Below, piece after piece: positions 3,899 through 24,768 of a DNA stretch of 32,000 nucleotides. Position 1 is the first letter of the stretch. Each line of letters begins with the position of its first letter. The position numbers were made by a program, and so were the translations under genes. The stretch covers positions 1,050,001 through 1,082,000 of the forward strand of contig NZ_CP064923.1 in NCBI RefSeq assembly GCF_018336915.1, written 5' to 3'. Source of the stretch: Acaryochloris marina S15. Its GTDB lineage: Bacteria; Cyanobacteriota; Cyanobacteriia; Thermosynechococcales; Thermosynechococcaceae. Below the pieces are notes generated by a model. That model was not told where the DNA came from, ran no database searches, and worked only from the letters and a program-made list of their open reading frames with translations.

Positions 3899-4206
3899 TG
3901 CTGATTAATTCTCATGTTGGCGCTTAAGGTATTGCTGTCTTGGACTAGGAGCCTGTCTTATTTCTTAGCAGGATTAGGATATTGCTGCAATCCTAAGAAT
4001 GCCCTCTATTCAGCCATCTATAGCCTGTAGCAGACTGCGATCGCGGTGATGATTGTCACGGCAGCACGGGTATGCTGAGGAGAAGGTAAGGATTGAAAGA
4101 GTCCTTAAAACAATTGGTACCTTATCCTGCTGTAGGCAAGATCCTGACTATTAATAAGGAAGATTGCTTCTGCACTTGATTCAGACTTTATGAGCTGGCG
4201 GCATCC

Positions 4207-4719: not shown

Positions 4720-4731
4720 GGGCGGTGAAGC

Positions 4732-6690: not shown

Positions 6691-6702
6691 CGATTTCCAA
6701 CC

Positions 6703-7131
6703 ATGACCCCCACTCTGCTCGGACGCTGGCAAACCCGTATTCTACTCATGGAAACCGTGGGCCTTGTCATTACCCTTTTATTTTGCAGCGGTTTTTTCGG
6801 CAATCCTGAAGGCTCTGGTTATTTTTGGTTGCTACAATATATCGTTATCTTTGGTTTAGGCTGGGACTACCTTTACATCCAGATCCAGAACTTCCGCTGG
6901 GACCAAGATTGGCCAGCAGCACTGCAATGGATAGCAGCGTTATGGGAAGGACTGTTTATTATTTTGCTCAGCGATGTTGCTGAAATTAAATTACCAGGCA
7001 CAGATGTCTGGCACTTGGGCTGGTTTATTGTTCACTACAGCTTTGTCTGGATAGCCGTCTTTATTACCTCACAAAGTTTGATGCGCCTCATTTTCCCCCG
7101 TTGGCGTTTCCGTGGGGGTCAATGGTTATAA
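6703..7131 (+). CDS. small Trp-rich integral membrane protein (about 4 TM), unknown function
   Basis: 142 aa with hydrophobic segments and many Trp residues. It starts 12 nt after the FHA-flavoprotein stop, so it is probably co-transcribed. Confidence 0.6.
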   Translation: MTPTLLGRWQTRILLMETVGLVITLLFCSGFFGNPEGSGYFWLLQYIVIFGLGWDYLYIQIQNFRWDQDWPAALQWIAALWEGLFIILLSDVAEIKLPGTDVWHLGWFIVHYSFVWIAVFITSQSLMRLIFPRWRFRGGQWL

Positions 7132-7942
7132 GGCTGTAGCCGCTGATCAACACCCAGCTTTAGCGTTCAATAATCGCCTGCTCGAGTTCCGCTCTACCCT
7201 TGGATATTGGATACACTTTTGCTCAAGAGCATTTTTTATTCCTGCAGATATTTTTATTTATCCCCAGAAAATTACCCTTCAGATTTACCTATCATTTTGA
7301 CTAATGGCAAAAGCTCTAAACCCAATACTCAATCTCAGTTTATGGGCTAGACATCTCACCTATTTTGGGCAGTGGATGAGCTGAGATTTACGACAGCAGT
7401 TTTAATCGGCTTTCTTGGAACTATACATAATAGTCGGTAGCATCTGAACTACAGATAATCATTAGTTCCTCGATGGACAGTATATCGCACCTCGACATAC
7501 TCCTAAATAATCAAATACCCGTCAACACTTATCCATTCAGATTAGGTCGATGTACGTGACAGACTATAGAGTTTATTACTATTTTGTTAATACAGAAATT
7601 TCACTCTTCATTCTTCAACAGTGGGATTTTAAGCTTATAGAGGCAAAGGATTACAGACTTAGAGATTGATAAAATCCTATGTCATCCGAAGAATAGAGTT
7701 TTCCTGATTTTCCATCCAAAATATCATTTATTTTCCTCATAAAACTCACCAAGACTGCTATTCTCACACTCTTCCTAAATTTTTTAGTACTCATTACCGC
7801 ATCTCATTCAAGTAAATGGGAAAACTGTGGATTGGGTCTAAACAACCTTTTGCGATTCCCTTTATGCTTTATTGATGACAAGAAGCAGCATATATTATGC
7901 TTGTCTCAACAGGTGATATTGCAGAATAGGATTGATAAACTC

Positions 7943-8335
7943 ATGGCTAAAAAGCAAAAACAAGGTAAGACGCCTTTAAGTGGACAAGCCTTGGTTGAGA
8001 AGGTCAAACAACTCGAAGACCTAAGTCGTGAAGAAAAAGCGAAAGAATGCGGTTACTTTACCCTGAATGAGGATGGGTCAGAACGCATCAGCATGATGAA
8101 ATTCCTCAATGCTTTGATCGATGCTGAAGGCGTAGAATTAGATGGCAAAAGCCAAAATGGCAATGGTCGAGGCGGTCGCAACGCCAGCTACCGAATCAGC
8201 GTTCAATCCAATGGGAATTTGCTGATTGGGGCTGCCTATACCAAACAGATGGAATTGGCTCCTGGCGATGAGTTTGAAATTTCTCTTGGACGAAAGCATA
8301 TCCATTTAAAACAGATTACTGAAGATGAAGAATAG
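7943..8335 (+). CDS. cyanobacterial AbrB-like (cyAbrB, CalA/CalB-type) transcriptional regulator
   Basis: 130 aa from the ATG at 7943 (MAKKQKQGK...). The C-terminal SpoVT/AbrB-like swapped-hairpin region reads RISVQSNGNLLIGAAYTKQMELAPGDEFEISLGRKHIHLKQ. Size and C-terminal placement of the AbrB domain match the cyanobacterial clade. The 7832 start in the ORF track is a non-ATG extension. Confidence 0.78.
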   Translation: MAKKQKQGKTPLSGQALVEKVKQLEDLSREEKAKECGYFTLNEDGSERISMMKFLNALIDAEGVELDGKSQNGNGRGGRNASYRISVQSNGNLLIGAAYTKQMELAPGDEFEISLGRKHIHLKQITEDEE

Positions 8336-8519
8336 GACCTAATTGCTCAAATCTATTTCAGAGTTACGGCAATTAGACTTGTACTTATTTTCAAGACTGC
8401 ACCAGCACCATTGATGTGCGCTTAGCTATTTATCTTTATCAAGGCGTCTTTTACTTCGAGATCAGCGACCGCTTAAGAGACGCTGGTAGGATAATGGGAT
8501 TAATTAAGCCAATAGCCCA

Positions 8520-9416
8520 ATGGTGCTAAAGCAAGATCGATATTGGAAATGGTTGTCACGAGGAGTCACCTATGTACTCCTGGGTGTCATTGCCTTGGCC
8601 ATGTTACTACCGCTGTTATGGCTGGTCAGTACAGCATTCAAAGGCCAGGAAGACAATATTTTCCCGGTTGCAGCGTCAAGAGATGTATCTTTATCCCCCC
8701 TGGAGAATATTGTTTTCTTCTTAAAGCAGTTATTCCCAGTCCACCCCACGTGGCATAACTTTGTCTCTGTTTGGCAACAACAGCCCTTTGGTCAGTATTT
8801 TCTCAATAGCCTATTCGTTTCATCTCTCACCGTCACCCTCAATGTGTTGTTCAGCTCTCTTGCCGCTTACCCCCTGGCTAGACTGGATTTTAAGGGTAAG
8901 GATTTGATTTTTGCGGTGGTTGTCTCCACAATTATGATTCCTTTTCAAATTGTGATGATCCCGCTTTACGTCCTGGCCGTTGAGTTAGGGCTCAAAAATA
9001 CCTATCTGGGTGTGATCTTTCCTGCGATCGCATCTGCGTTTGGCATCTTTCTGCTCCGGCAGGCCTTCCAAGGCGTCCCCAAAGAATTAGAAGAAGCTGC
9101 CCGCATCGATGGCTGTACAGAGCTAGGAATTTGGTGGCATATTATGCTGCCATCGGTCAGACCAGCCCTGGTTACCCTGGCGATCTTTGTTTTTATTGGC
9201 TCTTGGGGAGAATTCTTATGGCCATTGATCATTCTGGATCAGCCCGAGTATTACACCCTTCCCCTCGCAGTCTCCAATCTTTTTAGTGCATTTGGGCTGA
9301 ATTGGCGACTAATCGCCGCTGGCTCAGTTATTTCAGTTGCCCCAGTCTTATTGTTTTTCCTGATTATGCAACGGTATATCGTCCCTTCTGAAGCTGGGAG
9401 CGGCTTGAAGGGGTAG
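8520..9416 (+). CDS. carbohydrate-type ABC transporter permease (MalG/binding-protein-dependent family)
   Basis: 298 aa, about 6 TM. EAA loop: EEAARIDGCTELGIWWHIMLPSVRPAL. No partner permease, ATPase or binding protein is adjacent. Confidence 0.88.
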   Translation: MVLKQDRYWKWLSRGVTYVLLGVIALAMLLPLLWLVSTAFKGQEDNIFPVAASRDVSLSPLENIVFFLKQLFPVHPTWHNFVSVWQQQPFGQYFLNSLFVSSLTVTLNVLFSSLAAYPLARLDFKGKDLIFAVVVSTIMIPFQIVMIPLYVLAVELGLKNTYLGVIFPAIASAFGIFLLRQAFQGVPKELEEAARIDGCTELGIWWHIMLPSVRPALVTLAIFVFIGSWGEFLWPLIILDQPEYYTLPLAVSNLFSAFGLNWRLIAAGSVISVAPVLLFFLIMQRYIVPSEAGSGLKG

Positions 9417-14555: not shown

Positions 14556-15164
14556 TTATTGAAAGTAAAAGGCCAAAAAAATGTGAAACCCAAGCATGAC
14601 AGTAAACATGCTGACCAGGATGATGTGGGTTGATAACCAGATCGAACGCAGTTTGCGAATGAGGGGCCCCTTGGAGACTGTTGGCAAGCGCTTGGCCAAA
14701 CCCTGCCAGCTTTGAGGGACCAACCCGAAATATTTCTGTGAGGACTCTAGAATCCCCGTTTCTGCAACCACGCCCATTAAGGCAGATAGGGCTACTCCAA
14801 AGAAAACCCAGAGAAATATTGCATTAAAATTATCGCCAATCGCTCCGCCCGTATGGAGTAAAACGGTGGCGACTAGGGCTACACCGACAAAAATATGCAA
14901 GCTGCGCCACAACAGAATAGAGCCCGGTACCGCAATTTTCCACCGCCGCCCTCGCTTGCGCAACGCTAGCATCAGTTCAAAGAAGACTAGAGCCAGAACA
15001 ATAAACCCGGTGATCAGCTTATACAGATCAGTTTGCAGAATGATCAGGGTATTGAAGTTGCGATCGCGCAGCAACGGAATATACACCCCACTCAAGGCAA
15101 AAGGGGTCAAAATGGCTGCTACAACCAATGTCAGAATAATCAGAGTGGAAAATTTGGGCTTCAT
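14556..15164 (-). CDS. integral membrane protein with two H-x13-H pairs (predicted di-heme cytochrome-b-like)
   Basis: 202 aa, about 5 TM. One helix reads H90-IFVGVALVATVLL-H104 and another reads H180-IILVSMFTVMLGF-H194. This is the bis-His spacing seen in cytochrome b and ferric-reductase-type helices. The CDS call is firmer than the cofactor prediction. Confidence 0.6.
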   Translation of the reverse strand: MKPKFSTLIILTLVVAAILTPFALSGVYIPLLRDRNFNTLIILQTDLYKLITGFIVLALVFFELMLALRKRGRRWKIAVPGSILLWRSLHIFVGVALVATVLLHTGGAIGDNFNAIFLWVFFGVALSALMGVVAETGILESSQKYFGLVPQSWQGLAKRLPTVSKGPLIRKLRSIWLSTHIILVSMFTVMLGFHIFLAFYFQ

Positions 15165-15304
15165 AGCTCAAAAAAGATGATAGGAATTCGAACCATCAGT
15201 TCGTCCCACGACTTTTGAAAAAATGCTCTAGGAGATTGACTGATGGCGCAATCCCCTTCCCCCACAGAGTGTTATAAACAATTACATTGGCTTAGAGCCA
15301 AAAT

Positions 15305-15958
15305 CTAGGCACCATCCAAGGGAATGTTGATCATGATGCCACCCATGACGTCATCCATCTTGAAGACCTTATCGGGATACCGTTCTTTGTGGATGGGATG
15401 GGTGTTATGACAAGTGACACACGCTTCAGCTACTGCCTTGTCTGGATAGAGGGCAGAGAAATATTTCTTACCTCCCACTTCTTGGAACTCCTTGAAAGGT
15501 TCTCCAGTTTTCTCAACTTCCTGGATTGCTTTTTTCTCAAAGTCATTTTTAGGACCTTGAGCGTCGTTAATATACCAAGTTGAAATTAGGTTGTAGGTAA
15601 AAGCAGTATCTGATTCGGATGCAATTTCAGACCCGAGACGAAACATTTGAGCAGGCAAGGGAATACCATTACTGGTTTCCCAACCTTCGGTAGCTTCTAT
15701 ATCCAGAACGCCTTTATCCTTCGCATTCCCCTCCAATTTCTTGGCTCGGTTAACGACATGCTTGGTATAGGCTGTCCGGTCAGAGGCTAAAGCAGTATGG
15801 ATGTAATCGGCAACCAATTCGGGTTTTACACCACCCGTTGCCTGAGATTCCGCACCTCCACTACAGGCCACAGCTGTGAAACAAATCGCCGCAGCTAAAG
15901 CAAAGAAAGCAAAGGTTCTTGTGCGCAATTGGCGCACCCATTTTCGGGTCAAGTTCAT
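15305..15958 (-). CDS. Tll0287-like (DUF3365-type) c-type heme lipoprotein
   Basis: 217 aa. Signal peptide with lipobox-like AVAC (Cys32). A single CVTCH (aa 180-184) near the C-terminus is followed by MDDVMGGIMINIPL, which matches my memory of the DUF3365/Tll0287 PAS-like heme family. A strong AGGAG Shine-Dalgarno sequence lies upstream. Confidence 0.62.
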   Translation of the reverse strand: MNLTRKWVRQLRTRTFAFFALAAAICFTAVACSGGAESQATGGVKPELVADYIHTALASDRTAYTKHVVNRAKKLEGNAKDKGVLDIEATEGWETSNGIPLPAQMFRLGSEIASESDTAFTYNLISTWYINDAQGPKNDFEKKAIQEVEKTGEPFKEFQEVGGKKYFSALYPDKAVAEACVTCHNTHPIHKERYPDKVFKMDDVMGGIMINIPLDGA

Positions 15959-16009
15959 CTTGTGTCTCCTCTCAATGACATAAATCTGATTCGTTAGATA
16001 GGGACTGGA

Positions 16010-16792
16010 TTACTTCGAAGTGGCATTACCCGACCGTTGGGTTTCTAGAGTACGCACCATCTTCAGGGTGTCCAGGGATAAGGTGGGCGGTCGGGCAAAG
16101 TTCGATTCCACTAAGTCATCGTCAAACATGCTGTTGTAGGCAAATTCCATGCCATGGCAATTCATACAGACTTCCTTCACCATGCGATCTCGGGGCAGTA
16201 ACGTATAGGTATTGTTGTGGTTGACCATCACCGTCCCCGACTCCGATGTTTGTCGCGGCAGATGGCATGTGGCACAAGTGGTTGAAACCGTTGAAGGACG
16301 GGGGAGTACCCCCTCTTCTTGCAGCAACTGAGCATGCCGGGAGTTTTTGTAATTCAGCGAGTGGTTGTCTTTATGGCACGTCAGACAAGAATCGACCGAG
16401 GCCGGTAGAGTTTTGACAGAATGAGCATCATGGCAAGCATTACAGTTCATTTGCTTATCATGGACAGCCGCCTGCATCGGCAGGTGAGCCAAAGCTGGTG
16501 TTAGGGCAGGTTGCCCTTCCAGTAGACGAATGCCATGCTTACCCAGCAAAAAGGTATCCACCTGTCCCTCATGGCAGGAGCGACAGCTTTCATGGGTCGG
16601 TTGCTGAATCACCTGCTTAGCGGACTGAGGTTGGTGACAGCTCGAACAGTTCACCTCAGCTAAGGCATGGGCACTTTTTGACCAGCTTTGATTAATGGCT
16701 TGGAGCTGAGCGTTGTCAACTGCAGCAACGGGGGCCGTCAAGCCACTCCATAGCAGTAGCGCTAGCAACCCTCCCAGGACGACCTGCTTCAT
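16010..16792 (-). CDS. secreted hexaheme c-type cytochrome
   Basis: 260 aa. Signal peptide MKQVVLGGLLALLLWSGLTAPVAA. Six CXXCH motifs: CSSCH, CRSCH, CNACH, CLTCH, CATCH, CMNCH. Many extra His residues are available as distal ligands. Confidence 0.85.
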   Translation of the reverse strand: MKQVVLGGLLALLLWSGLTAPVAAVDNAQLQAINQSWSKSAHALAEVNCSSCHQPQSAKQVIQQPTHESCRSCHEGQVDTFLLGKHGIRLLEGQPALTPALAHLPMQAAVHDKQMNCNACHDAHSVKTLPASVDSCLTCHKDNHSLNYKNSRHAQLLQEEGVLPRPSTVSTTCATCHLPRQTSESGTVMVNHNNTYTLLPRDRMVKEVCMNCHGMEFAYNSMFDDDLVESNFARPPTLSLDTLKMVRTLETQRSGNATSK

Positions 16793-17487
16793 GCTCGCCC
16801 TCCCACAAACTCTTTCCCCAAATCCGGTTGAGGAGGGGTTTTAAGTTCAGGCTTAAAGCTACGTTCGGGTAACGCAGGTTTGGGCAACATGTCCGCCTGG
16901 CCCATATTTTGGCGCAAGAACCCCGTTGAGATGGTGCGGTGGTCATGGTAATTGTGGCAACCGGCTGTCCAGCATCCATCAGGAGAGAAGTCTTTATGAC
17001 TCGCCAGTTCCCCTTGGATAATGCCTTCATGGCAAATCATGCAAAGATCAGGCTTCAGATGTACCCCCCGATCAAACATATGCACATGTTCGTTATGGCA
17101 AGTCGTGCAGGTTAGAACCTCTAATTTCTCTAATTCAGCAGCCCAGCGCAGATCACGGAACTTCTTGGGTCCATGGGCATCCGTTGCCATTTCCGCCTCA
17201 TGACAGCGCATACAGGTTTCATTCGTCACGGGTTTAAAACCTTCATGGCATGAAGCACAAGAGGCTTCAAACAGGATGTGGCCATTAGAGGTTACACCCG
17301 GTAAAAAGATTGTCTTGTGGTCTAGGGCAAAAGCTGCCCCTAACCACCCCATTAAGATTAAACACAGCAAAATTACGGTATTTCTGACATTGAATAGAGT
17401 CGAAAAGCTGAAAAAAGATTTTTGCGTCTTGGCCACTACAACTGCCCTAGAGAATTTAGACCAACAGAATGGCAATAATGACCGCAA
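16789..17487 (-). CDS. membrane-anchored pentaheme c-type cytochrome (cytochrome c3 / class III-like)
   Basis: Four CXXCH motifs (CASCH, CMRCH, CTTCH, CMICH) plus CWTAGCH (CX4CH, nt 16954-16974). N-terminal TM helix VILLCLILMGWLGAAFAL. The stop overlaps the next start as ATGA (16789-16792). The start is uncertain: the TTG at 17487 overlaps the globin 3' end by 32 nt, while an in-frame GTG at 17436 lies about 20 nt after the globin stop. Confidence 0.8.
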   Translation of the reverse strand: MRSLLPFCWSKFSRAVVVAKTQKSFFSFSTLFNVRNTVILLCLILMGWLGAAFALDHKTIFLPGVTSNGHILFEASCASCHEGFKPVTNETCMRCHEAEMATDAHGPKKFRDLRWAAELEKLEVLTCTTCHNEHVHMFDRGVHLKPDLCMICHEGIIQGELASHKDFSPDGCWTAGCHNYHDHRTISTGFLRQNMGQADMLPKPALPERSFKPELKTPPQPDLGKEFVGGRA

Positions 17488-18499
17488 TAATGCCGCCGCC
17501 CGCCAGACCTAATAGCAATCCTGTTGGGCGATCACTCTCCACAACTTCACTGACTTCACTAGAAATAAGGCTGGGCTGTGCAGGTTGAGCAGAATTGAGA
17601 TCTAACGCTGCTTCCGAGTAATCAGCACCATCCAACATAATCGTGGAGATGGCTCCATAGGCATCAATCCAAGCCTGTTTGACGTCATCCGTCCAGGCAG
17701 ATCCGAGAAATTGTTCAAAGGTTTTGAGGAGGGTATTGCCGACCAACGGATAATGCTCGGGCAAGGCCCCATATTGGACATGTCGGGCCCCTAGCCCTTG
17801 CAGGGCATCTCCCAACACCTCTGGCTTGCGCAGGTTTTCCACAACCAAAACCAGGGATTGTAGGAGCTTTTTGCTTTGTTGTTTGATGTCCGTGTTCGCA
17901 AATAAAGGTTTGGCAGCGGGATAATCCGTGAATAAGTTGTCGTAGAAGCGATCGGCAAACTCAGTAGCGACTGGCTTCACTTGGGCAAAGCTATTTTCCA
18001 GAAGTTCAACTTGCAGCGGAGAACCTGAATCAGCAGGTGGCGTGGCAGCTTCTGGATCGAGTTGCACTTCTGCTTCTGAATAATCTGCACCGTCCAGCAT
18101 GATCGTGGTGATAGCACCATAGGCATCTACCCAGGCGGATTGAACCTCCTCAGTCCATGCGTCCCCCAGATATTGTTCAAAGGTCTTGAGCAAGGTTGAC
18201 CCCACCAATGGGTAATGCTCAGGTAAGGCCCCATATTTCACATGTCGGGCTCCCAGACCTTTGAGGGCGTTACTCAAAGCATCCGGTTTACGTAGATTTT
18301 CAATAACCAACACCAAGGATTGCAAGAGCTTACCGCCTTGTTTCTCCATATCGGTCCCCTCAAAGAGGGGTTGAGCCGCTGGATAGTCTGTGAATAAATT
18401 GTGATAAAAGCTTGAAACAAATTCATTAGCTTGAGGTTTAACTTTCTCAAAGCTGCTTTCAAGCAGTTCGACTTGTAAGGCCATAGATGTACCTATCAA
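17456..18499 (-). CDS. tandem (double) Hmp-like globin with C-terminal transmembrane anchor
   Basis: 347 aa. Two globin domains (aa 8-143 and 162-297) each carry FY(H/D)NLFTDYPAA.PLF and LGARHV(K/Q)YGALPEHYPLVG...AW(V/I)DAYGAI. These align well with my memory of the flavohemoglobin globin domain (FYDRMF...PELKEIF; AQKH...KPEQYNIVGEHLL...AWGKAYGVL). There is no signal peptide. C-terminal TM: GLLLGLAGGGIIAVIIAILLV. Confidence 0.85.
   Translation of the reverse strand: MIGTSMALQVELLESSFEKVKPQANEFVSSFYHNLFTDYPAAQPLFEGTDMEKQGGKLLQSLVLVIENLRKPDALSNALKGLGARHVKYGALPEHYPLVGSTLLKTFEQYLGDAWTEEVQSAWVDAYGAITTIMLDGADYSEAEVQLDPEAATPPADSGSPLQVELLENSFAQVKPVATEFADRFYDNLFTDYPAAKPLFANTDIKQQSKKLLQSLVLVVENLRKPEVLGDALQGLGARHVQYGALPEHYPLVGNTLLKTFEQFLGSAWTDDVKQAWIDAYGAISTIMLDGADYSEAALDLNSAQPAQPSLISSEVSEVVESDRPTGLLLGLAGGGIIAVIIAILLV
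17609..18478 (-). repeat. intragenic tandem duplication, period 462 nt (154 codons), two copies (17609-18016 and 18071-18478)
   Basis: By hand alignment the two encoded globin domains are identical at 103 of 136 positions. DNA similarity is also visible, for example 18203 versus 17741. Confidence 0.85.
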
Positions 18500-18955
18500 A
18501 AATGTAAAGTTCAGGCACTAGAGGAAAATACAAAAAATTGTCTTCTAGATTTATTTTGGGCCCTCAGTTGAGCACTTAGAAACTGAATAATCTGAAGCGA
18601 ACATTCTCACAAAAAAGAAGAAGTTCAACATAGAAGCTCTAAGCCAAACAAAGACTCTTGATCATAGTTTGCAAGTGTGAATTAACTCAATCAGAGGTCT
18701 TCTCACCCTAAAGACATCATGAATTAAAGATGATATTAGCTTCCTACGGTCGCTATCTCAATTTATGCTCAAAAACTATCAATATCGCTTTATCTGTGAT
18801 CTTCAAGAATAATGAGTCTCAGGCTATAACATTAACTTTCAGGCATTCATAAACAAAATTTACCTGCTATTGCAAAATATGCATTCTAAGTTAAAAAATA
18901 ATGATTCCTTAGGTCGTATCAATTAATACAATTAAAGCTTTTTAACAGCTAAAAT

Positions 18956-18974
18956 ATGCATTGAATCAATGCAT
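18956..18974. promoter_or_regulatory. perfect 9-1-9 palindrome ATGCATTGA-A-TCAATGCAT within a cluster of ATGCAT motifs
   Basis: The palindrome was verified by reverse-complementing. Other ATGCAT copies lie at 18879-18884 and 18978-18983, with GTGCAT at 18990-18995. AAAATATGCATT is repeated at 18874-18885 and 18951-18962. Its role is unproven: it may be an operator for the globin operon, or a terminator hairpin of the upstream ccs-pentapeptide unit. Confidence 0.4.
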
Positions 18975-19044
18975 TTAATGCATACCAAAGTGCATATTTC
19001 AAGAACTTCACAGATGGTTTCTGTTAATCGTATAAAAAGCTACA

Positions 19045-19971
19045 TTAACTAGGGATATTTAACGCACCTCGTTTTCGAAGTAGTTGCTTTTGCTCACTTG
19101 TTAAACCGTGGGCATCGGTGAAGATAGCACCTGACACAATGCTGTTAGAGAAATCTACCTTGTGCAGTTGAGTCTTTTCTAGATTGGCATCCCGAAAATC
19201 TGTATTGGTGACGATGGCACCGGTTAAATCAGCCTGTTCCAAATTAGCGCTATACAGGGAGGCCTGCTCAAGATGGGTTGCACTCATACAGCCCCGGATC
19301 AAGGACACATGATCTAAACTGGCCTCCTGCAATTGTGCTTCCTTGAGATTGGCTTGATCAAAGTTGCTACCGATTAGATCAGCCCCCTTAAAATCAGCCT
19401 GTTTCAAATCGGATTTCACAAACTGAGAACGCTCCAAGCGGGCATGGGCAAAGATGGCTTCTGGAAACTGGGCCTGACTCAGATTGGCATCATTGAGCTT
19501 AGCCCGACTGAAGTTAGCACCCTTAAAGTCACTCTGGGATAAATCCGCCTTGATCAAAATGGCATCTCGAAAAGAGGCATAGTGGCCTTTTGCCTCTGCC
19601 AAATCGACTGCCTCTAATATGGCTGTAGCTACATTCGCCTGATCCAAACAAGCACCATGGAGCTTTAACTTCACCCCATGAATTCCCATCAAATTAGCCG
19701 AGTCCAGCCGGGCGGATGTGAGTTGGGCCTCGGTGAGTAGGGCGTCTTGTAAGCTAATTCCTGTAAGGATCGAAAAGATCAGGATGGCTTCAGTAAAATC
19801 GGCTCGATTGCAGGACGCTCCGGATAAATTAGCCACGCGCAAATAGGCTTGCGGAAAGTGGCCTTCATCCAGGCAGCACCCTTGTAAATTGATATTACTG
19901 AGCTCTGCCCCCTGCAAAGAAATACCTTGTTGGACTTTTGTTTGTACCTCTTCAGGTGTGAGAACGGCCAT
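19045..19971 (-). CDS. pentapeptide-repeat protein
   Basis: About 308 aa from the ATG at 19971. It is almost entirely A(D/N)LxX-type repeats (ANLSGASCNRADFTEA..., ADLSQSDFKGANFSRAKLNDANLSQAQF...). The gene lies 47 nt (5 nt if the TTG at 20013 is used) downstream of ccsA on the same strand. Confidence 0.9.
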   Translation of the reverse strand: MAVLTPEEVQTKVQQGISLQGAELSNINLQGCCLDEGHFPQAYLRVANLSGASCNRADFTEAILIFSILTGISLQDALLTEAQLTSARLDSANLMGIHGVKLKLHGACLDQANVATAILEAVDLAEAKGHYASFRDAILIKADLSQSDFKGANFSRAKLNDANLSQAQFPEAIFAHARLERSQFVKSDLKQADFKGADLIGSNFDQANLKEAQLQEASLDHVSLIRGCMSATHLEQASLYSANLEQADLTGAIVTNTDFRDANLEKTQLHKVDFSNSIVSGAIFTDAHGLTSEQKQLLRKRGALNIPS

Positions 19972-20018
19972 CGCTTTATTTCCCCATAGGTATGTATAAG
20001 TGGGGCTGCCCAATCCAG

Positions 20019-21719
20019 CTATGCATCAACCGTCTGCACCTCAGGTACTGGAATAGAGGCATCAGTATGATGTTGAGAACGATAGCGAAGAATCGTTGCT
20101 AGAACGAACAAGGTATCTAAGCCAACAATGCTGGCAATCAGCAGTTCAGAGCCACCTGTGCCAAACCCATAGCTATGTAGTCCGGTTCCCAAGACAAAAT
20201 TGACCCCATACCAAGCCATCAGCACAGCATTAAAGGCCAAAACACTCGCAACACTCATGCCAAAATAACCTAACCAACCGGCCAACCGGCCATGCACAGG
20301 AGCTAAATAGCAGAGCAAAGCAATTAAAGCCCAAGTCTCTTTCGGATCCCAGCCCCAAAACCGTCCCCAGGAAAAATGGGCCCAGATACCGCCCAAAATA
20401 ATGCCCGTGGTGAGCAGCAAAATACCCACTTGAATCACCCGGGTATTGAGGCGAGATAAGGAGATTGCCATGGTCGTGCCTTCAGGTCGCCGCCAATACT
20501 GAATGAGCGTTAGATGCCCCAGTCCCATTGCCAAAGCGAAGCTGGCATAGCTGAGGGTAATTGTGGGCACATGGATACTCAACCAGAAGTTATCTCGGAG
20601 GACAGGCACTAAGGGAGCAATACTGGGATCTAGCACCGCAGGTAAACTATCCGCCAGCAATAGACAAACGACTGCTAGGGGAGCTGCCGCCAATAAGTAG
20701 GAGCGGGCTCGGGTCTGTAGTTCAAAACAAAAGGCTAAGGCAGCAATTCCAAATCCAACCCACACCACTGACTCATACATATTGGTGACGGGAGGACGGC
20801 CCGCAATTTGCATGCGCAGACCGAAACCAAAGGCCTGAACCAAGATGCCTCCAAGAAACGTTCCCATACCGCTCCAATAGAAATCGAAGTTCGGAATGAG
20901 TTGGCTGATGAGGAGTATGAGAAATGCTATCCCATATAGTTTCCAAGCTTTACCAAAGGGATGGAAGTGATTGAAAAACACTTCCCGGTGCAGGGTTGCT
21001 TGATCTGGGTAAATCCCAGAACTCAAGTCTGCTAAGGACCGTTGCAATGAAGTTGCAGGCTCCTCCAAAGCACTTAAATCATCACCATTGCCTTGATATT
21101 GCTGGTTGAGTTGCTCAAACTGGGCTTGAATGTGGGTCGCTATCTCAGAAGAATACAGCTGCTGCGCCTCCGCAACCCCTACCCAAGTGCCTTTGATATC
21201 TCGCGGATGGGGAACGAGGGGCAACGTTTGATTACCCACCGTATCCAACATTAAATTCAGTCGATCTTCGAGGGTGAAAGCTTCACGTTCATCCCTTGTC
21301 AGTGGCTGTTCTTGCAGCTGCTTGGTATGCGCTTGTTGCAAGATACGGGCCAAGTCAGAATTGACTAGAGTAGAGAAACTAAAATGCTTTTGCTCTACGG
21401 GCAATCCTATTTCGGCTTTGAGGGGACGATAGTTGACCAAAATAAAGGGTTCATCATTCCAATCCCGACTGTTCTGCCAGAGAGACCAATAGATTTGAGG
21501 GGCATCTAAAACCTCACCACTCAATAGCTGATAGCGCTCTGAACCATGAAGCGTCTCTACTGTTTCTCTGGCCACTGTATCTAACGGCTTCTTTCGCCCA
21601 TCCAGCTGAACAGCCATCGTATCAACCGCCGTTTGGGTAGTCGGCTGCCATTGACTAATAGGGGTGACCATCAACGCACAAGCGAGACAAAGTCCCCATA
21701 AAAATTTCAATTGATTCAT
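20019..21719 (-). CDS. ccsA: long-form cytochrome c biogenesis protein CcsA/ResC (System II heme handling)
   Basis: 566 aa. WWD domain WGRFWGWDPKETWAL (nt 20331-20369) is flanked by conserved His residues (SIHVPT, GLGH, APVHGR). A roughly 230-aa extra soluble region follows the N-terminal signal/TM. The start overlaps the ccsB stop (TAATG at 21717-21721). Confidence 0.85.
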   Translation of the reverse strand: MNQLKFLWGLCLACALMVTPISQWQPTTQTAVDTMAVQLDGRKKPLDTVARETVETLHGSERYQLLSGEVLDAPQIYWSLWQNSRDWNDEPFILVNYRPLKAEIGLPVEQKHFSFSTLVNSDLARILQQAHTKQLQEQPLTRDEREAFTLEDRLNLMLDTVGNQTLPLVPHPRDIKGTWVGVAEAQQLYSSEIATHIQAQFEQLNQQYQGNGDDLSALEEPATSLQRSLADLSSGIYPDQATLHREVFFNHFHPFGKAWKLYGIAFLILLISQLIPNFDFYWSGMGTFLGGILVQAFGFGLRMQIAGRPPVTNMYESVVWVGFGIAALAFCFELQTRARSYLLAAAPLAVVCLLLADSLPAVLDPSIAPLVPVLRDNFWLSIHVPTITLSYASFALAMGLGHLTLIQYWRRPEGTTMAISLSRLNTRVIQVGILLLTTGIILGGIWAHFSWGRFWGWDPKETWALIALLCYLAPVHGRLAGWLGYFGMSVASVLAFNAVLMAWYGVNFVLGTGLHSYGFGTGGSELLIASIVGLDTLFVLATILRYRSQHHTDASIPVPEVQTVDA

Positions 21720-23488
21720 TATCCATCCTGAGTCGCAAGTGAAATGGGTGCTGGATCAGCCACAACTGGCTGAGCAGAGTCTTCCGGTATGGCTGTAGGG
21801 AAGGGTTTTGCCCGCTTTTTCCACAGGGTGGGGCCATAGAACATGACGCCAATGCCCACTACCGTTAATAAGGCACCACTCCAAGTCAACGCGGTCACCC
21901 ATATCGGTTCGCGTTTAATTTGCAGAGTGGACTGGTTCAAATCCCCAGGATTCCATGAGGCTTGAGCAATTTTCCACCCTTGGTACCAGGTGGGGTGGTT
22001 CATCCAGACCGAGCGTTGTTGGGTTTCTCCCCCCTCTAAATTTTCGAGGCGAATCTGACTGGTCCACATGGCCACCGATTCGCTGCCTTCATTCCGCTCA
22101 ACGATAAAGTCATCCAAACTAATCCCGAAGGGTAAAGCCATCATCCGGGGACCAAACGCTGTCATCAATGCATGGGAACCATCTGTAATCAGCGCTGATT
22201 CTCCCCAGGGTAGCCACTGCCGATGCCCATCTGCAGTCGCAACCTGCAACGCCGGAACCCCCTCTACCCCAGGTGGAGCCGAGAAACGCTCTTGAATCAT
22301 CTCAGCATGGGGAAGCCAGTCTGCCAGGGCGATTTGAAAATCTGCCCAGCCGGGTTGAATGATTTGATCCATGGCCAAGGGGCCTGAGGAAAATTCTTGG
22401 GAAGACCGAGCTGCATAATAGAGCTGTTGATTAGCCACAACGACCCGAAAATAGTCCGTGGCAGAGGGAGGTGGCACTTGATAGCTCAAGCTCAGATCAA
22501 ATTGCTCAGCATCTCCCACTAAGATGGGGTCTAATCCCGTTTGGGCAAACACATACCAGTGTTCTCGGTGATCCGCCTGGACTAGTTCCACTTCAACGGC
22601 TGGATTACGCCAGTCCTGGGACGCAGTGATGGGCTGATTGTGATCATCCAACCGAAAGTCTGGCCAGGCATTGACTAGATGTATCGTTGCATCATCTAAA
22701 CTCCCATCATGACGATGCAACTCATCAATGGCAAAGGTGGTATTTATTTCTCCCAACTGTATCTGTAGGGTTCCAGATGGCCTGGATTGAGCTTGAGTGG
22801 GATCTGCTAAAAGCTGTTGGAGGTTGCTCTTATCTGCAGCTTGCCAAAGCTCCAGTTGGGCAGGCCCCAAATCAATTCTGTCAGCAGCGGGGGATAGCCA
22901 TTGTTCGAAGGTTTGGCCCATGCGATCGCTACTTAATACCAAGCGTATTGCTGGCTCATCCTGGGCATCACCTTCTCGGTACTCAACTGTTTCGATCGAA
23001 TTCTCGTTGTAGTCCAACAACGTCAGCCCAACAAATTGAGTGGGAGAAATAACTCGCTCAGGCGTTACCATCACCGCCGCCTGTTGCACTTGACCTTGGT
23101 CATCCATCACTTCCAGTAACTCACCCTCAACCCTCACCAGATGGTTAGCAGGCTGATCCGTGCGGACTAGTAATAGTCCTTCCACACCGAGATGAATCAC
23201 TGCCGCAGATCCCGCAATCAGCACAATCAGCCCTAAGTGGGTGAGGGCAAAACCGACTTTCCGGGCTCCTCGCCAGGGATAGCGGGACAGGGTAGAGATG
23301 CCCAAATTGACTGCCAGCAGGAACATCAAGGCTCCAAACCAGGGACTTTTATAAATTTGCTGTTGAACCACAAGGGAGCCAACTTTGCTCTCATAGAACG
23401 TGGCCCAAACCAAGATACTTGCGATCGCAACTAATACGGGTACAGCTAACTTAATTGAACCCAAAAAGCGGATAAATTTTGAGACCAT
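21719..23488 (-). CDS. ccsB: cytochrome c biogenesis protein CcsB/ResB (Ccs1-like)
   Basis: 589 aa from the ATG at 23488 (MVSKFIRFLGSIKLAVPVLV...). ResB-type N-terminal TM pair includes ALTHLGLIVLIAG. A large soluble domain and a C-terminal TM (VTALTWSGALLTVVGIGVMFY) follow. Confidence 0.85.
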   Translation of the reverse strand: MVSKFIRFLGSIKLAVPVLVAIASILVWATFYESKVGSLVVQQQIYKSPWFGALMFLLAVNLGISTLSRYPWRGARKVGFALTHLGLIVLIAGSAAVIHLGVEGLLLVRTDQPANHLVRVEGELLEVMDDQGQVQQAAVMVTPERVISPTQFVGLTLLDYNENSIETVEYREGDAQDEPAIRLVLSSDRMGQTFEQWLSPAADRIDLGPAQLELWQAADKSNLQQLLADPTQAQSRPSGTLQIQLGEINTTFAIDELHRHDGSLDDATIHLVNAWPDFRLDDHNQPITASQDWRNPAVEVELVQADHREHWYVFAQTGLDPILVGDAEQFDLSLSYQVPPPSATDYFRVVVANQQLYYAARSSQEFSSGPLAMDQIIQPGWADFQIALADWLPHAEMIQERFSAPPGVEGVPALQVATADGHRQWLPWGESALITDGSHALMTAFGPRMMALPFGISLDDFIVERNEGSESVAMWTSQIRLENLEGGETQQRSVWMNHPTWYQGWKIAQASWNPGDLNQSTLQIKREPIWVTALTWSGALLTVVGIGVMFYGPTLWKKRAKPFPTAIPEDSAQPVVADPAPISLATQDG

Positions 23489-23630
23489 GCAAACTTCAGC
23501 CAATAGGGAACCTGACCCTATTTAGTCTGAATCGACTGGCCTAAATTGTAGTGAATCTATCAAAGTTATCGATCGACAAGGGTCATAAATGCGTTAATTG
23601 CATTTACGGCATGAATAAAATGCATCCCTG

Positions 23631-23727: not shown

Positions 23728-24222
23728 TTAGGGCTCATCCACAGTGACGGTATAGCGAAATTGTTGCCCTCTTTCAAAAGCACCCACCCAAATTGAATAC
23801 TTTCCTGCAGGAAGTTGATCCGCAATCCAACCCGCATCTTTCCCTTGAGCCGAGTCATCCAGGCAATAGAGGCGATTTTTGGGTCCTTTAATCAGTAGGG
23901 TTGTGTCTCGTCTGCTATTGACTTGCAAACGTAGCTTGTTCACCTTTTTCGTCAAAACCAGCACATGATCTGGACTAGGAGAGCCATACCCCAAGCACAT
24001 ATTTCTCTGCATATCTCGCTCCCCCACAACTCGATGAAGCGCAATGGCTCCTTTTGCATAGCCTTTTACAGTTTTGGAACTGAATCCAGGCGATAAACTG
24101 AGACTGGCAAAATTAGCCGGATTGGCATTCACAACAGGCCCCTTACCGCCCATCCCCACCATCAGCAGCAACGCTGTCATGGGAATCTGCCATCGGTCCC
24201 ACCCTTTTCTACGATTATTCAT
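23728..24222 (-). CDS. secreted hypothetical protein
   Basis: 164 aa from the ATG at 24222 (a GTG at 24243 is possible). Signal-like MTALLLMVGMG...VVNANP. Two Cys residues (CLGYG, YCLDD). The C-terminal WVGAFERGQQFRYTVTV suggests a beta-sandwich. No family assigned. Confidence 0.5.
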   Translation of the reverse strand: MNNRRKGWDRWQIPMTALLLMVGMGGKGPVVNANPANFASLSLSPGFSSKTVKGYAKGAIALHRVVGERDMQRNMCLGYGSPSPDHVLVLTKKVNKLRLQVNSRRDTTLLIKGPKNRLYCLDDSAQGKDAGWIADQLPAGKYSIWVGAFERGQQFRYTVTVDEP

Positions 24223-24432
24223 AACTTGCACCTCAACGCCCACATCAAGGGCGTCATTTGAGTTGGGTAGACGTGCACACTTTGGGAAAGTTGCTCTCTA
24301 TCTCAAGCGTGCCCAGATAGCCCCCTTATTCTGTGCGTTAAGTTTATAAATCGTCAGAATCTCCAGACTTTTTTTAGAGTGATCGCAAGGTCTAACTCAA
24401 GCCCATTCTGAACGCAATCATTACGCAAAACC

Positions 24433-24768
24433 TTATGCTGACAGGCTACCTGAACTGAGGGGAATCAGTACCCCTTCTGTTGTTAATCCCAGTTGGATAG
24501 ACTCTTGAGAGCGAATCGCTCTGCCCGTTAAAGCACAACGGGTGTCTGCCTGAGCGATAGCGGGAAATGATGCAGAGATTTGTGACAGTTCAACGGTAGG
24601 GGTAAAGTCCCCCGATTTTTGCTGAACATAATTCCAAAGAATATCGCGAATTAGCGCTTGATAGCCCTGATGGCCAGAGAGGTTTTTAAGTTTATCCTTC
24701 AATTCTCGCTCCAACCGAATACTGGTGACTTGCATCTCAGTGGTAGGGACGGAATGAGTGATAGACAT
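24433..24768 (-). CDS. ribbon-helix-helix (CopG/BrnA-like) DNA-binding protein
   Basis: 111 aa. N-terminal TSIRLERELKDKLKNLSGHQGYQALIRDILWNYV fits a beta-strand/helix/helix RHH pattern. The C-terminal half is unassigned. Confidence 0.55.
   Translation of the reverse strand: MSITHSVPTTEMQVTSIRLERELKDKLKNLSGHQGYQALIRDILWNYVQQKSGDFTPTVELSQISASFPAIAQADTRCALTGRAIRSQESIQLGLTTEGVLIPLSSGSLSA

Follow-up and report, generated by a model that had tools for sequence, protein, structure and literature searches.

Eight consecutive minus-strand genes in a 32-kb stretch of the Acaryochloris marina S15 genome (the whole stretch analyzed, hereafter the window) raise the question of whether they form one functional unit and, if so, what it does. 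All eight open reading frames (8/8) described in an earlier note on this DNA were found where it had placed them (Table 1). The heme sites counted by motif (5+6+1 c-type, 2 globin and 2 putative b-type) are as that note stated, including the two globin domains and the two H-x13-H pairs. Profile matches were obtained for PF05140, PF01578 and PF00042 as well as the Tll0287-like PF11845. The claim that all eight genes are connected to heme stands for seven of them and falls for the pentapeptide-repeat protein (PRP), which has no demonstrable heme link. A literature search for the cluster found no description, in agreement with the note's remark that no such composition had been described.

Table 1. 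Positions of genes and putative control elements in the window
Feature	Position	Strand	Remarks
Mem, 202 aa, 5-TM, four-His, putative di-heme cytochrome b	14556..15164	-	no Pfam hit; putative distant DUF4405 relative
Tll0287-like (sCache_heme) mono-heme c lipoprotein	15305..15958	-	PF11845, 76.5 bits; one CXXCH
MHC6, putative C-terminal half of split undecaheme	16010..16792	-	6 CXXCH; own Sec signal peptide
MHC5, putative N-terminal half of split undecaheme	16789..17487	-	4 CXXCH + CX4CH; N-terminal signal or anchor
Tail-anchored tandem double globin, ORF 347 aa	17456..18499	-	PF00042, two stretches
NtcA-type box GTATTAATTGATAC (putative)	18916..18929	-	TAACTT -10-like hexamer 22 nt downstream
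Perfect palindrome ATGCATTGA-T-TCAATGCAT	18956..18974		PRP-globin spacer
PRP, 322 aa	19045..20013	-	PF00805, 179 bits; no signal peptide
Long-form CcsA, 566 aa	20019..21719	-	PF01578, 105.6 bits; WWD domain + conserved His
CcsB/ResB-like cytochrome c biogenesis protein, 594 aa	21719..23503	-	PF05140, 57.8 bits

Conservation of the gene cluster

The five genes for globin, MHC5, MHC6, the Tll0287-like protein and Mem are strictly colinear in 80 of 80 related cyanobacterial species loci, colinearity being judged wherever the contig was long enough. Co-conservation, named beforehand as the test on which the proposed island could fall, was thus found throughout, and the conservation of this five-gene core is far beyond chance. 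Relatives of the module are encoded in up to 219 species genomes, and the hexaheme and Mem families are of the same size (502 and 505 hits, respectively). The cyanobacterial carriers are mostly benthic or mat-forming. The earlier view that multiheme cytochromes c are uncommon in cyanobacteria needs correction, as relatives of MHC5 and MHC6 are not rare in benthic and marine species.

The remaining three genes form a ccsB-ccsA-PRP unit, with ccsB first and a 1-nt overlap between the ccsB stop and the ccsA start; a spacer of 545 nt lies between this unit and the globin operon. The CcsB/CcsA pair lies within 10 kb of the core in most cyanobacterial loci (for CcsB, in 49/80), despite rearrangements that change its position and orientation between species. 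The pair resembles CcsBA, which serves Helicobacter and Bacteroides as the holocytochrome c synthase of System II. In the fused Helicobacter hepaticus CcsBA (7S9Y), the N-terminal residues 11-139 are matched by the N-terminus of CcsB, and CcsA aligns almost over its full length (residues 33-545 with 405-929), sharing the WWD domain and the His ligands of IHV, VHGR and LHSY. In contrast to the fused protein, the window pair is split in two genes and tied to one specific substrate cytochrome set, and its CcsA differs from the standard protein in scoring under the NCBIfam equivalog cutoff (TIGR03144, 152.6 vs 187.6). The profile scores and the co-occurrence show a divergent CcsB/CcsA pair linked to the heme module, in support of the dedicated pair that had been proposed. 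A related PRP occurs within 10 kb in about 40 of the 80 loci, at variable position and orientation, and its membership of the heme system is uncertain.

Heme proteins on the two sides of the membrane

MHC5 and MHC6 overlap through ATGA. A fused 427-aa homolog at locus L081 carries 11 motifs and has 41% identity to MHC5 (over residues 7-189 of the fusion) and 44% to MHC6, which rules out the two proteins as independent cytochromes. By this homology each makes up one half of an 11-heme protein that other phyla have in fused form. The fifth MHC5 motif is the CX4CH C172-WTAG-C177-H178, and the probable start is GTG 17436, since it gives the modal length of 215 aa and abolishes the overlap with the globin gene. 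Beyond the motifs, five His in MHC5 and six in MHC6 are invariant, together matching the 11 hemes, and all 11 appear to be bis-His.

The AF2 model of MHC6 (pLDDT 91.9) matches hydroxylamine oxidoreductase (HAO) structures with a Foldseek probability of 1.00 (Brocadia HAO 6T5E, Kustc0457/8 6H5L and NeHAO 4N4N). In an HMM alignment, five MHC6 heme motifs follow Kustc0458 motifs 2, 3, 5, 6 and 7 in order, whereas the heme 4 motif falls in an insertion missing from MHC6. As modeled, MHC6 is therefore an HAO-like fold without the catalytic heme 4 motif. The HAO/octaheme cytochrome c family acts on NH2OH, NO and nitrite (family definition, PMC8042395). MHC6 shares its fold and motif order, but has six hemes instead of eight and lacks the motif of the five-coordinate catalytic heme. 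Each MHC6 heme has a candidate distal His, no Tyr cross-link can be assigned, and in other phyla its counterpart shares one polypeptide with a c3-like pentaheme N-terminal half.

The Tll0287-like gene always adjoins the undecaheme gene, outside cyanobacteria too. Its lipobox Cys32, C180xxC183H184, M105 and M205 are invariant. The protein shares the PF11845 domain, a covalent c heme and an extracytoplasmic location with Tll0287 (PDB 5B82) and Geobacter GSU0582/GSU0935. It has no other Cys; Cys/His ligation as in Tll0287 is excluded because none is free as an axial ligand. It also differs from these sCache_heme proteins in lacking a signaling output domain. Its sequence is too divergent for a PDB match, and none was found by searches that included profiles. 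Some sCache_heme domains act as NO sensors (bioRxiv 10.64898/2026.02.01.703092).

In the globin, two flavohemoglobin/Vgb-type domains are followed by an acidic linker of low complexity and, at the C-terminus, a TM helix. Its start is probably ATG 18484, because orthologs open with MALxVELL and the public gene call is 342 aa. The closest solved structures are Methylacidiphilum HGbI (3S1I), Vitreoscilla hemoglobin and flavohemoglobins. Among 142 globin domains, PheB9-TyrB10, GlnE7 and LeuE11 are conserved at a level of at least 95%, and judged by these residues the TyrB10/GlnE7 pocket is of the flavohemoglobin, NO-dioxygenase type. Orthologs have one to three globin domains, and nearly all keep the hydrophobic C-terminal tail. 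The protein has no signal peptide, and the earlier reading of a globin held by a C-terminal anchor only is supported.

Mem contains H90/H104 and H180/H194, each pair an H-x13-H, which are invariant in homologs down to 26% identity. PF14358 is matched by 11 of 13 Mem family members, whereas the window Mem falls below threshold (E=0.071, 14.1 bits vs 26.7); a profile search from Mem reaches DUF4405 proteins and reductase fusions. Experimentally, DUF4405 binds heme b (PMC11334425). These weak but consistent hits suggest that Mem is a putative, divergent four-His cytochrome b distantly related to the DUF4405 type, which makes the proposed transmembrane di-heme electron link plausible. The four His on two TM helices and the 13-residue spacing are shared with the DUF4405/MsrQ/PepSY-like/NOX ferric-reductase-type cytochromes b, but Mem has five predicted TM helices, not six, and is partnered by a c-type undecaheme and a globin instead of by flavinylated proteins, MsrP or O2. 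AF2 modeled Mem poorly (pLDDT 68), and structure comparison gave no match.

In other phyla, the Mem domain stands at the C-terminal end of fusion proteins with Pyr_redox_2, Rubredoxin_C and Fer2_BFD, a cytoplasmic NAD(P)H-flavin/[2Fe-2S] reductase that recalls the flavin modules of NOX-type cytochromes. Such fusions occur in Polyangium, Crenothrix, an Opitutaceae MAG and others, where they adjoin undecaheme and Tll genes; in Crenothrix an H-NOX domain is joined as well. The suggestion that membrane electron transport takes the place of a flavoreductase domain was therefore apt. On the positive-inside rule and the N-terminal position of the fused reductase, the N-terminus of Mem is predicted to lie inside, which would place H90/H180 close to the cytoplasm and H104/H194 close to the outer side. 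The fused relatives favor a route by which electrons leave the cytoplasm over one that brings them in to the globin.

Genomic contexts and upstream elements

Relatives were also found in Myxococcota, Verrucomicrobiota, Gammaproteobacteria and Acidobacteriota. Five of 11 non-cyanobacterial contexts place the module amid NasT-like ANTAR regulators, nrtABC(D), an NIR_SIR nitrite reductase and a Mo nitrate reductase, and NsrR-type regulators are present in such nas-operon contexts too; no nitrate-assimilation genes are nearby in the other six. A globin is encoded in 6/11 contexts, and one more has the H-NOX fusion. Among cyanobacteria, a ResA-like thioredoxin gene follows Mem in about 50 loci, a gene for a Tat/lipobox Rieske protein adjoins the cluster in about 29, and the heme/iron lipoprotein ChaN is present in 13. 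A TonB-dependent receptor is encoded near locus L086, and L081-type clusters have a class I cytochrome c gene after Mem. The cyanobacterial clusters encode no cytoplasmic reductase, no locus examined has an outer-membrane porin-cytochrome component, and none of the conserved genes codes for an output domain of the kinase, GGDEF, MCP or DNA-binding kind.

The putative NtcA box upstream of the globin gene, an element of a short, palindromic type, lies about 430 nt from the start codon in Acaryochloris and is kept in the three other Acaryochloris loci. The five NtcA-type sites of the 32-kb window are not significant by themselves (2.8 expected). Across cyanobacteria, 47/65 loci have GTAN8TAC in the 500 nt that precede the globin, compared with 4.5 expected from dinucleotide shuffles (maximum 10), and 29/65 have it together with a correctly spaced TAN3T (0.5 expected). 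These sites reach a density of 1.80 per kb there; for the other intergenic gaps the value is 0.43 per kb. The perfect palindrome in the spacer could be the terminator of the upstream unit or an operator.

Candidate functions

We tentatively favor, at somewhat less than even odds, a transmembrane chain of hemes that is under nitrogen control and deals with NO or related N-oxides. The cluster would be one functional unit, a heme-only path for electrons that crosses the cytoplasmic (or thylakoid) membrane and is served by System II maturation proteins of its own. The outer face would hold the all-bis-His undecaheme and the sCache_heme lipoprotein, the membrane the di-heme cytochrome b Mem, and the cytoplasmic face the tail-anchored globin. 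As part of the nitrate-assimilation regulon (under NtcA in cyanobacteria), the unit would dispose of or salvage NO and related N-oxides leaking from nitrate and nitrite reduction. Mem would be a redox hub reduced from the cytoplasm, by the fused reductase in many other phyla and presumably by ferredoxin or another unlinked donor in cyanobacteria, where a donor is assumed because the clusters encode no reductase. It may feed two arms: the tethered globin, which takes up a single electron in each cycle of NO dioxygenation (NO + O2 -> nitrate, re-assimilable), and the periplasmic undecaheme with sCache_heme, acting reductively on a periplasmic N-oxide. With apparent bis-His ligation at all 11 hemes and the catalytic heme of HAO missing from MHC6, no catalytic site for such chemistry is evident there, and the Tll0287-like heme is the sole candidate. 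Eleven periplasmic hemes also seem excessive for detoxification, which counts against that role. The NO-related role raised earlier nevertheless gains independent support from the globin pocket, the nitrate-assimilation contexts, the H-NOX fusion and the NtcA-type boxes.

A precedent for a globin NO-detoxification unit within a nas operon is Bjgb-Flp-NasC of Bradyrhizobium, in which nitrate-assimilation genes are grouped with those for a single-domain globin of the flavohemoglobin type and for a distinct flavoprotein that donates electrons (PMC4724949). Non-cyanobacterial homologs of the module likewise lie in nas operons with NasT-like regulators. However, the Bradyrhizobium components are all cytoplasmic and include no membrane cytochrome b, multiheme cytochrome c or sCache_heme, whereas the window cluster has no flavoprotein and its globin is tandem and tail-anchored. 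The Hmc, Tmc and Qrc complexes of sulfate reducers also combine a periplasmic multiheme cytochrome c, a membrane cytochrome b and a cytoplasmic redox protein, but apart from generic c3 motifs the sequences showed no kinship, and on the cytoplasmic side a globin or flavoprotein takes the place of their HdrD-like Fe-S protein.

A rival model along the lines of the earlier note runs the chain the other way: periplasmic or lumenal cytochromes, fed from a periplasmic donor (cytochrome c6, quinol, a Rieske protein like PetC3 or some oxidizable substrate), would reduce the tethered globin through Mem, which replaces the flavohemoglobin flavoreductase domain in NO dioxygenation or O2 reduction. The missing cytoplasmic reductase, the near-universal globin tether, the adjoining Rieske and class I cytochrome c genes and the NO-dioxygenase pocket all fit such inward flow. 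We nevertheless consider it doubtful, as the reductase fusions fix outward flow to the undecaheme/Tll arm, whose reversal in cyanobacteria is less parsimonious, and 11 hemes with dedicated maturation are a heavy cost for one electron when cytoplasmic ferredoxin or FNR could reduce the globin. Electron export unrelated to nitrogen, in which an outward conduit of the NOX or MsrQ kind would supply an 11-heme wire across the periplasm, mat-dwelling cyanobacteria would thereby reduce oxidants inside or outside the periplasm (Fe(III), Mn oxides, ROS or sulfur species, for instance) and the globin would be an O2 gate, accords with the long bis-His wire, the DUF4405 likeness and reductase fusions, the benthic carriers, and the ChaN and TonB-dependent receptor genes. 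It is unlikely in view of the NtcA-box enrichment, the recurrence of the module within nas operons that also carry NasT- and NsrR-type regulators, and the likeness of the MHC6 fold to the N-oxide enzymes HAO and NrfA. The lack of any porin-cytochrome component, with a regulatory signal that points to nitrogen, likewise speaks against the extracellular electron transfer once suggested.

That the globin, H-NOX and sCache_heme sense gas or redox state while the cytochromes relay the signal is quite improbable: all three are classic sensor modules, some sCache_heme domains sense NO and H-NOX is joined to the reductase in Crenothrix, but output domains are missing, twelve c hemes with a dedicated maturation system are implausible for signaling, and the NAD(P)H oxidoreductase fusions indicate bulk electron flow. 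A housekeeping ccsBA lying by chance beside unrelated heme genes could account for the 545-nt spacer and the variable placement of the pair, yet is hardly credible, being effectively refuted by the synteny of the core, by its conservation across phyla, by the persistent proximity of CcsB/CcsA, and by a CcsA of the epsilonproteobacterial CcsBA type that scores below the equivalog cutoff.

The cluster encodes an undescribed, yet widely conserved heme-protein chain predicted to cross the cell membrane, and the comparative evidence probably links it to nitrate assimilation and, more tentatively, to the handling of nitric oxide.

Gene content, conservation and recurrent neighbors

The eight minus-strand genes between 14556 and 23503, which the earlier note had described from the sequence as a heme-protein island, are present exactly as it gave them, and Pfam places seven of them, all but the gene of the membrane protein Mem. 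The profiles it had proposed for a search (Globin, Cytochrom_C_asm, ResB, cytochrome c3-type and Tll0287-like) were all matched in the expected open reading frames.

Features of the heme-protein island and of its predicted promoter (window positions)
Feature	Position	Strand	Content
ResB-like protein (CcsB)	21719-23503	minus	Pfam ResB
CcsA-like protein, 566 aa	20019-21719	minus	Pfam Cytochrom_C_asm
Pentapeptide-repeat protein (PRP)	19045-20013	minus	Pfam pentapeptide repeats
Predicted NtcA-type box	18916-18929		GTAN8TAC, with TAACTT ~22 nt downstream as TAN3T -10 element
Double globin	17456-18499	minus	two Pfam Globin domains
MHC5 (pentaheme cytochrome c), 232-aa ORF	16789-17487	minus	cytochrome c3-type motifs; four CXXCH and one CX4CH
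MHC6 (hexaheme cytochrome c), 260-aa ORF	16010-16792	minus	cytochrome c3-type motifs; six CXXCH
Tll (Tll0287-like lipoprotein)	15305-15958	minus	Pfam Tll0287-like; one CXXCH
Mem, 202 aa	14556-15164	minus	without Pfam match; two H-x13-H pairs

The island is flanked by unrelated housekeeping genes, including groESL, a pyrR-like gene, argH and tpiA, and an NCBI protein of Acaryochloris marina matches its MHC6 at 100% identity. A plasmid origin was rejected, since megablast against PLSDB returned nothing and the orthologous locus of strain MBIC11017 (L002) is chromosomal. The globin likely starts at ATG 18484 and MHC5 likely at GTG 17436, which yields 215 aa, the modal length of the orthologs; the longest MHC5 ORF, from TTG 17487, runs over the globin stop, and public gene calling shortens MHC5 to 133 aa (2603-3004 in the related context L088).

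Several other genes of the window were recorded. Two small minus-strand ORFs of 171 and 111 aa (23728-24768), upstream of ccsB and without a Pfam match, are conserved solely in the closest Acaryochloris loci, L001 and L002. Three adjoining FHA-domain genes at 2432-6690, a PrsW-family intramembrane protease-FHA fusion (minus) and two FHA/YscD-like genes (plus), look like a possible cluster for Ser/Thr-phosphorylation signaling. A cyAbrB-type regulator (PF14250, 7832-8335) falls where the GC content of the window is lowest (0.39, 7001-8000).

When one genome per GTDB species was scanned with the hexaheme protein as query, a relative was found to be encoded in 219 species genomes, and the best 80 of these 219 are all cyanobacterial, with Acaryochloris, Pleurocapsales/Xenococcaceae, Moorena, Coleofasciculus, Lyngbya, Spirulina, Halomicronema and Phormidesmis among the carriers. 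The earlier note had named a lack of co-conservation as grounds for refuting its reading; the order globin-MHC5-MHC6-Tll-Mem is kept in 80 of 80 loci, contig extent permitting. The ResB/CcsA pair lies within 10 kb of these five genes in most of the 80 loci, on either side and in either orientation. In a collection of 5.8 billion proteins the hexaheme and Mem families are of nearly equal size (502 and 505 matches). The five genes very probably encode one conserved transmembrane heme electron-transfer unit, hereafter the module. No description of it was found in the full-text literature searched, and its proteins are publicly annotated as "hypothetical protein" or "cytochrome c3 family protein."

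Unbiased clustering of all ORFs in the 80 loci revealed three more recurrent neighbors, none of them present in the window. In ~50 loci (L005-L080; e.g., L059:12669-13148) the gene directly after Mem, on its strand, encodes a membrane-anchored thioredoxin (WCTTC). This protein corresponds to the arm of System II that reduces thiols, and is probably a ResA/CcsX-like partner of the module's CcsB/CcsA. In ~29 loci CcsA is adjoined by a small Tat/lipobox Rieske [2Fe-2S] protein (e.g., L054:3384-3857), and a ChaN heme-binding lipoprotein occurs in 13 (e.g., L037:13234-14127). In ~12 loci a second, soluble globin with a conserved C-terminal extension (GELTFYEWLDLYGESS...) was also observed directly after Mem (e.g., L007:12259-12807, L013:12306-12842).

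The maturation pair itself has both domains of a System II synthase. CcsA residues 33-545 align with the CcsA part of CcsBA (7S9Y), a fusion protein of Helicobacter hepaticus, the WWD motif (WGRFWGWDPKETW) is present, and three histidines align with the conserved ligands of 7S9Y; the N-terminus of the ResB-like protein aligns with that of CcsBA. As a standard protein the pair is not recognized: CcsA scores 152.6 against TIGR03144, under the cutoff of 187.6, and the ResB-like protein has no NCBIfam match. These low scores and the CcsBA alignments together argue for a divergent, split CcsBA travelling with the module. Because all cyanobacteria need cytochromes f, c6 and c550, the pair would be additional to a standard ccsB/ccsA pair.

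Properties of the heme proteins

MHC5 and MHC6 correspond to the two halves of a longer cytochrome. In a fused 427-aa homolog (L081), which carries 11 heme motifs including the CX4CH, the first 189 residues are 41% identical to MHC5 and the rest 44% identical to MHC6. At least 1,443 proteins belong to the fused undecaheme family, with Polyangium, Crenothrix, Opitutaceae, Thermoanaerobaculia and Gammaproteobacteria among the source names. In the window the two genes overlap by ATGA and MHC6 has a separate signal peptide, consistent with a gene split. When 114 fused proteins were aligned with the concatenated window pair, exactly 11 histidines outside the heme motifs were invariant, of which five fall within MHC5 and six within MHC6. 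The match between 11 such histidines and 11 hemes suggests that all 11 hemes of the undecaheme are probably bis-histidine coordinated.

The AF2 model of MHC6 (pLDDT 91.9) has hydroxylamine oxidoreductases (HAO) as its sole significant structural matches: Brocadia HAO (6T5E), Kuenenia Kustc0457/8 (6H5L) and Nitrosomonas HAO (4N4N), at Foldseek probability 1.00, E 2.4e-5 to 8.9e-4 and TMq 0.49. A profile match to 6H5L (E 1.4e-6) pairs MHC6 motifs 1-5 with Kustc0458 motifs 2, 3, 5, 6 and 7, whereas motif 4 of Kustc0458 (CDMCH) sits in an insertion that has no Cys counterpart in MHC6. Members of the HAO/octaheme family have eight CX2-4CH motifs, and their heme 4 is the five-coordinate catalytic heme (PMC8042395). 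MHC6 shares the fold and the order of heme motifs with this family, but it has six motifs rather than eight, and its six invariant non-motif histidines match its six hemes, so that a five-coordinate heme 4 is not found. Since the counterpart of motif 4 is missing and heme 4 is catalytic in the family, MHC6 as modeled is the electron-transfer skeleton of HAO without its active site. MHC5 gave weak motif-level matches only against the PDB.

Other assignments of the cytochromes were rejected. A quinol dehydrogenase of the NapC/NirT/NrfH type is not supported, as MHC5 has no PF03264 match and TIGR03153 reaches just 17.7 bits, on MHC6; scores for NapC/NirT, NrfA and DmsE/MtrA all fall far under the NCBIfam cutoffs. 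The UniRef label "nitrite reductase (cytochrome; ammonia-forming)" on fused homologs is likewise unsupported, as these have neither a CXXCK motif nor an open heme.

Mem has five predicted transmembrane helices, with H90 and H104 on the third and H180 and H194 on the fifth, and none of these four histidines varies in homologs down to 26% identity. When 1.84 billion representative proteins were searched with a profile, two kinds of relatives emerged: stand-alone proteins matching DUF4405 (PF14358, up to 39.3 bits), and many proteins of ~650 aa in which a Mem-like C-terminus is joined to a reductase, either Pyr_redox_2 + Rubredoxin_C + Fer2_BFD or cNMP + BFD + FNR-like. The most distant relatives come from metagenomes only. 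PF14358 is matched by 11 of the 13 Mem family members, the window protein itself scoring 14.1 bits (E = 0.071), under the gathering score of 26.7. DUF4405, which is related to MsrQ and PepSY-like cytochromes, has been purified, binds heme b and has four central histidines, heme binding having been shown only for an Oscillospiraceae member (PMC11334425). On these sequence grounds, we infer that Mem is a putative four-histidine transmembrane cytochrome b with two b hemes. Its N-terminus is expected to be cytoplasmic, both from the positive-inside rule and because cytoplasmic reductases are fused to the N-terminal side of the domain, and one histidine pair would then lie near each membrane face. 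The AF2 model of Mem has a pLDDT of 67.9, and Foldseek against the PDB found nothing below E = 4.

The globin matches PF00042 with 129.9 bits over two domains, each with the globin fold, the proximal HisF8 and a G-x-R-H-x-x-Y-G motif. Its best PDB matches are HGbI, Vgb and flavohemoglobins, so that the nearest solved structures are single-domain globins and flavohemoglobins. A flavohemoglobin (Hmp) identity was rejected because FAD_binding_6 and NAD_binding_1 domains are missing and NF009805 gives 149 bits against a cutoff of 432. Across 142 aligned domains from related loci, the pocket residues F31-Y32, Q54 and L58 show at least 95% conservation; we take them, from the sequences of Vgb and Hmp, to be positions B9, B10, E7 and E11, and PheB9-TyrB10, GlnE7, LeuE11 and HisF8 are kept in both window domains. 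A TyrB10/GlnE7 (LeuE11) distal pocket is typical of NO-dioxygenating globins. Depending on the species, the gene encodes one, two or three tandem domains, nearly always followed by an acidic low-complexity linker and a terminal transmembrane helix.

Tll scores 76.5 bits against PF11845 (cutoff 24.1), and its C180xxC183H184 is invariant, as in sCache_heme proteins. The lipobox Cys32, M105 and M205 are invariant as well. Tll0287 itself has Cys/His axial heme ligation; this is excluded for the window protein because Cys32 is its sole conserved Cys besides those of the CXXCH. No match to solved structures was obtained for Tll with the single sequence or with a 13-sequence profile.

Predicted NtcA control and nitrate-assimilation contexts

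In 47 of 65 loci the 500 nt upstream of the globin contain the NtcA consensus GTAN8TAC, compared with a mean of 4.5 and a maximum of 10 in dinucleotide-preserving shuffles. When the box also had to be followed, 20-24 nt farther along the coding strand, by a TAN3T element, 29 of the 65 loci qualified against 0.5 expected. The density of GTAN8TAC upstream of the globin is 1.80 per kb, as opposed to 0.43 per kb in the remaining intergenic gaps of these loci. One such box is present in the window and conserved in the other Acaryochloris loci, and NtcA-type control of the globin operon is predicted from these motifs. Upstream of the globin there is no enrichment of FNR/CRP-type TTGAN6TCAA boxes, and simple sigma-70 and terminator scans performed no better than shuffles.

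The PRP-globin spacer (18500-19044) is 545 nt long and AT-rich (GC ~0.40). It contains a perfect palindrome, ATGCATTGA-T-TCAATGCAT, at 18956-18974, several more ATGCAT copies and a second GTAN8TAC site (19030-19043) touching the PRP stop. The predicted promoter implies a leader of ~385 nt; an Rfam gathering scan of the window, this spacer included, gave no match to a structured RNA.

Relatives outside cyanobacteria were inspected in 11 gene contexts. In nine of them a Tll0287-like gene comes after the undecaheme gene; in Crenothrix (L085) the Tll gene lies ~3 kb upstream instead, and one contig (L082) begins at the Tll gene. A Mem gene or a reductase-Mem fusion directly adjoins the undecaheme/Tll genes in the inspected contexts. 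In 5 of the 11 (L081, L087, L090 and two JGI contigs) the module lies within a nitrate-assimilation cluster. L081 holds glnA, a NasT-like response regulator with an ANTAR domain, globin, undecaheme, Tll, Mem, a cytochrome c, a ferredoxin, a NIR_SIR/Rieske nitrite reductase and a Mo nitrate reductase. The Opitutaceae locus L087 reads nrtABCD, reductase-Mem, undecaheme, Tll, globin, nitrite reductase, a CysJ-like protein, nitrate reductase and an Rrf2 regulator, and L090 reads NasT-like regulator, globin, reductase-Mem, undecaheme, Tll and nrtABC. As heme partner on the cytoplasmic side, 6 of the 11 contexts have a globin and one more has an H-NOX domain, at the N-terminus of the Crenothrix reductase-Mem fusion; globin and H-NOX domains both bind NO and O2. 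A link of the module to nitrogen-oxide or nitrate-assimilation physiology is, on balance, somewhat favored.

Two of these loci hold further genes. In L085 (Crenothrix polyspora, 336-8959) a dense set of heme/NO-related genes lies beside the H-NOX-reductase-Mem gene: a PNPOx_N-truncated-globin fusion, two ferredoxin-reductase-like genes (one with an FHA domain) and a separate Tll0287-like gene. In L081 (3161-3931) the genes just before the globin encode a metallo-beta-lactamase/ODP-family (di-iron-type) protein and a STAS protein, which may represent an additional component that reacts with NO or O2.

Direction of electron flow and possible function

The module could operate as a heme-only chain comprising the globin on the cytoplasmic side, two b hemes carried by Mem, the eleven c hemes of the undecaheme and that of Tll. 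Its own System II proteins would mature this chain, which would be expressed together with nitrate assimilation and would act on NO or related N-oxides. Mem would be reduced from the cytoplasm and pass electrons outward, a direction implied by its reductase-fused relatives. Cyanobacterial nitrate and nitrite reductases depend on ferredoxin, whereas heterotrophs use NAD(P)H flavoproteins there, and ferredoxin may therefore be the donor to Mem in cyanobacteria. For each NO-dioxygenase cycle the tethered globin would take one electron from the Mem heme on the cytoplasmic side, and the nitrate so produced could be re-assimilated. Since the undecaheme shows no open heme, the Tll heme is the only candidate site for periplasmic substrate chemistry. 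As a whole, this mechanism is offered tentatively. Although the observations of the earlier note are borne out, its interpretation is upheld only in part: it had electrons running the opposite way, from the periplasm to the globin. Such a flow has in its favor that cyanobacteria lack the reductase seen in relatives, as well as the Rieske and cytochrome c genes found near the module, but in view of the reductase fusions we consider it less likely than outward flow.

A more elaborate reading adds catalysis in trans. The undecaheme would be an HAO-type scaffold minus its catalytic heme, and the open-coordination c heme of the sCache_heme lipoprotein would supply the active site, Tll docking at the invariant G93-L97-T-P99-A102-P105-M106 loop that would replace the heme 4 segment. 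A DUF4405-type cytochrome b would power this complex across the membrane, and the tethered cytoplasmic globin would use the same hub to convert NO to assimilable nitrate; both arms together would form a two-compartment NO/NH2OH salvage loop in nitrate-assimilating bacteria and cyanobacteria. Taken whole, as a new N-oxide-processing complex, it is quite improbable. We see the module as a variant of two known kinds of system: transmembrane heme conduits, and NO detoxification by a globin whose reductase is a separate protein. Functionally, its nearest precedent is Bjgb-Flp-NasC (PMC4724949); structurally, its closest relatives are the HAO family for MHC6, DUF4405/MsrQ/NOX-type cytochromes b for Mem, sCache_heme for Tll and CcsBA for the maturation pair.

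The genes, the predicted NtcA box and fused single-polypeptide homologs suited to biochemistry are now identified for direct testing. If the proposed chain is correct, many marine and benthic cyanobacteria, in up to 219 species-level genomes and including Acaryochloris, Pleurocapsales, Moorena, Coleofasciculus, Lyngbya and Spirulina, as well as members of at least four other phyla, would possess an unrecognized nitrate-linked transmembrane heme chain. A DUF4405-type cytochrome b and stand-alone sCache_heme proteins would gain a physiological partner, and the globin would be a natural case of reduction at a membrane cytochrome, not by a flavoreductase. Cyanobacterial electron transport, from which multiheme cytochromes c are normally left out, would acquire an extra component, one relevant to the question of how phototrophs growing on nitrate escape NO toxicity and prevent NO/N2O release.
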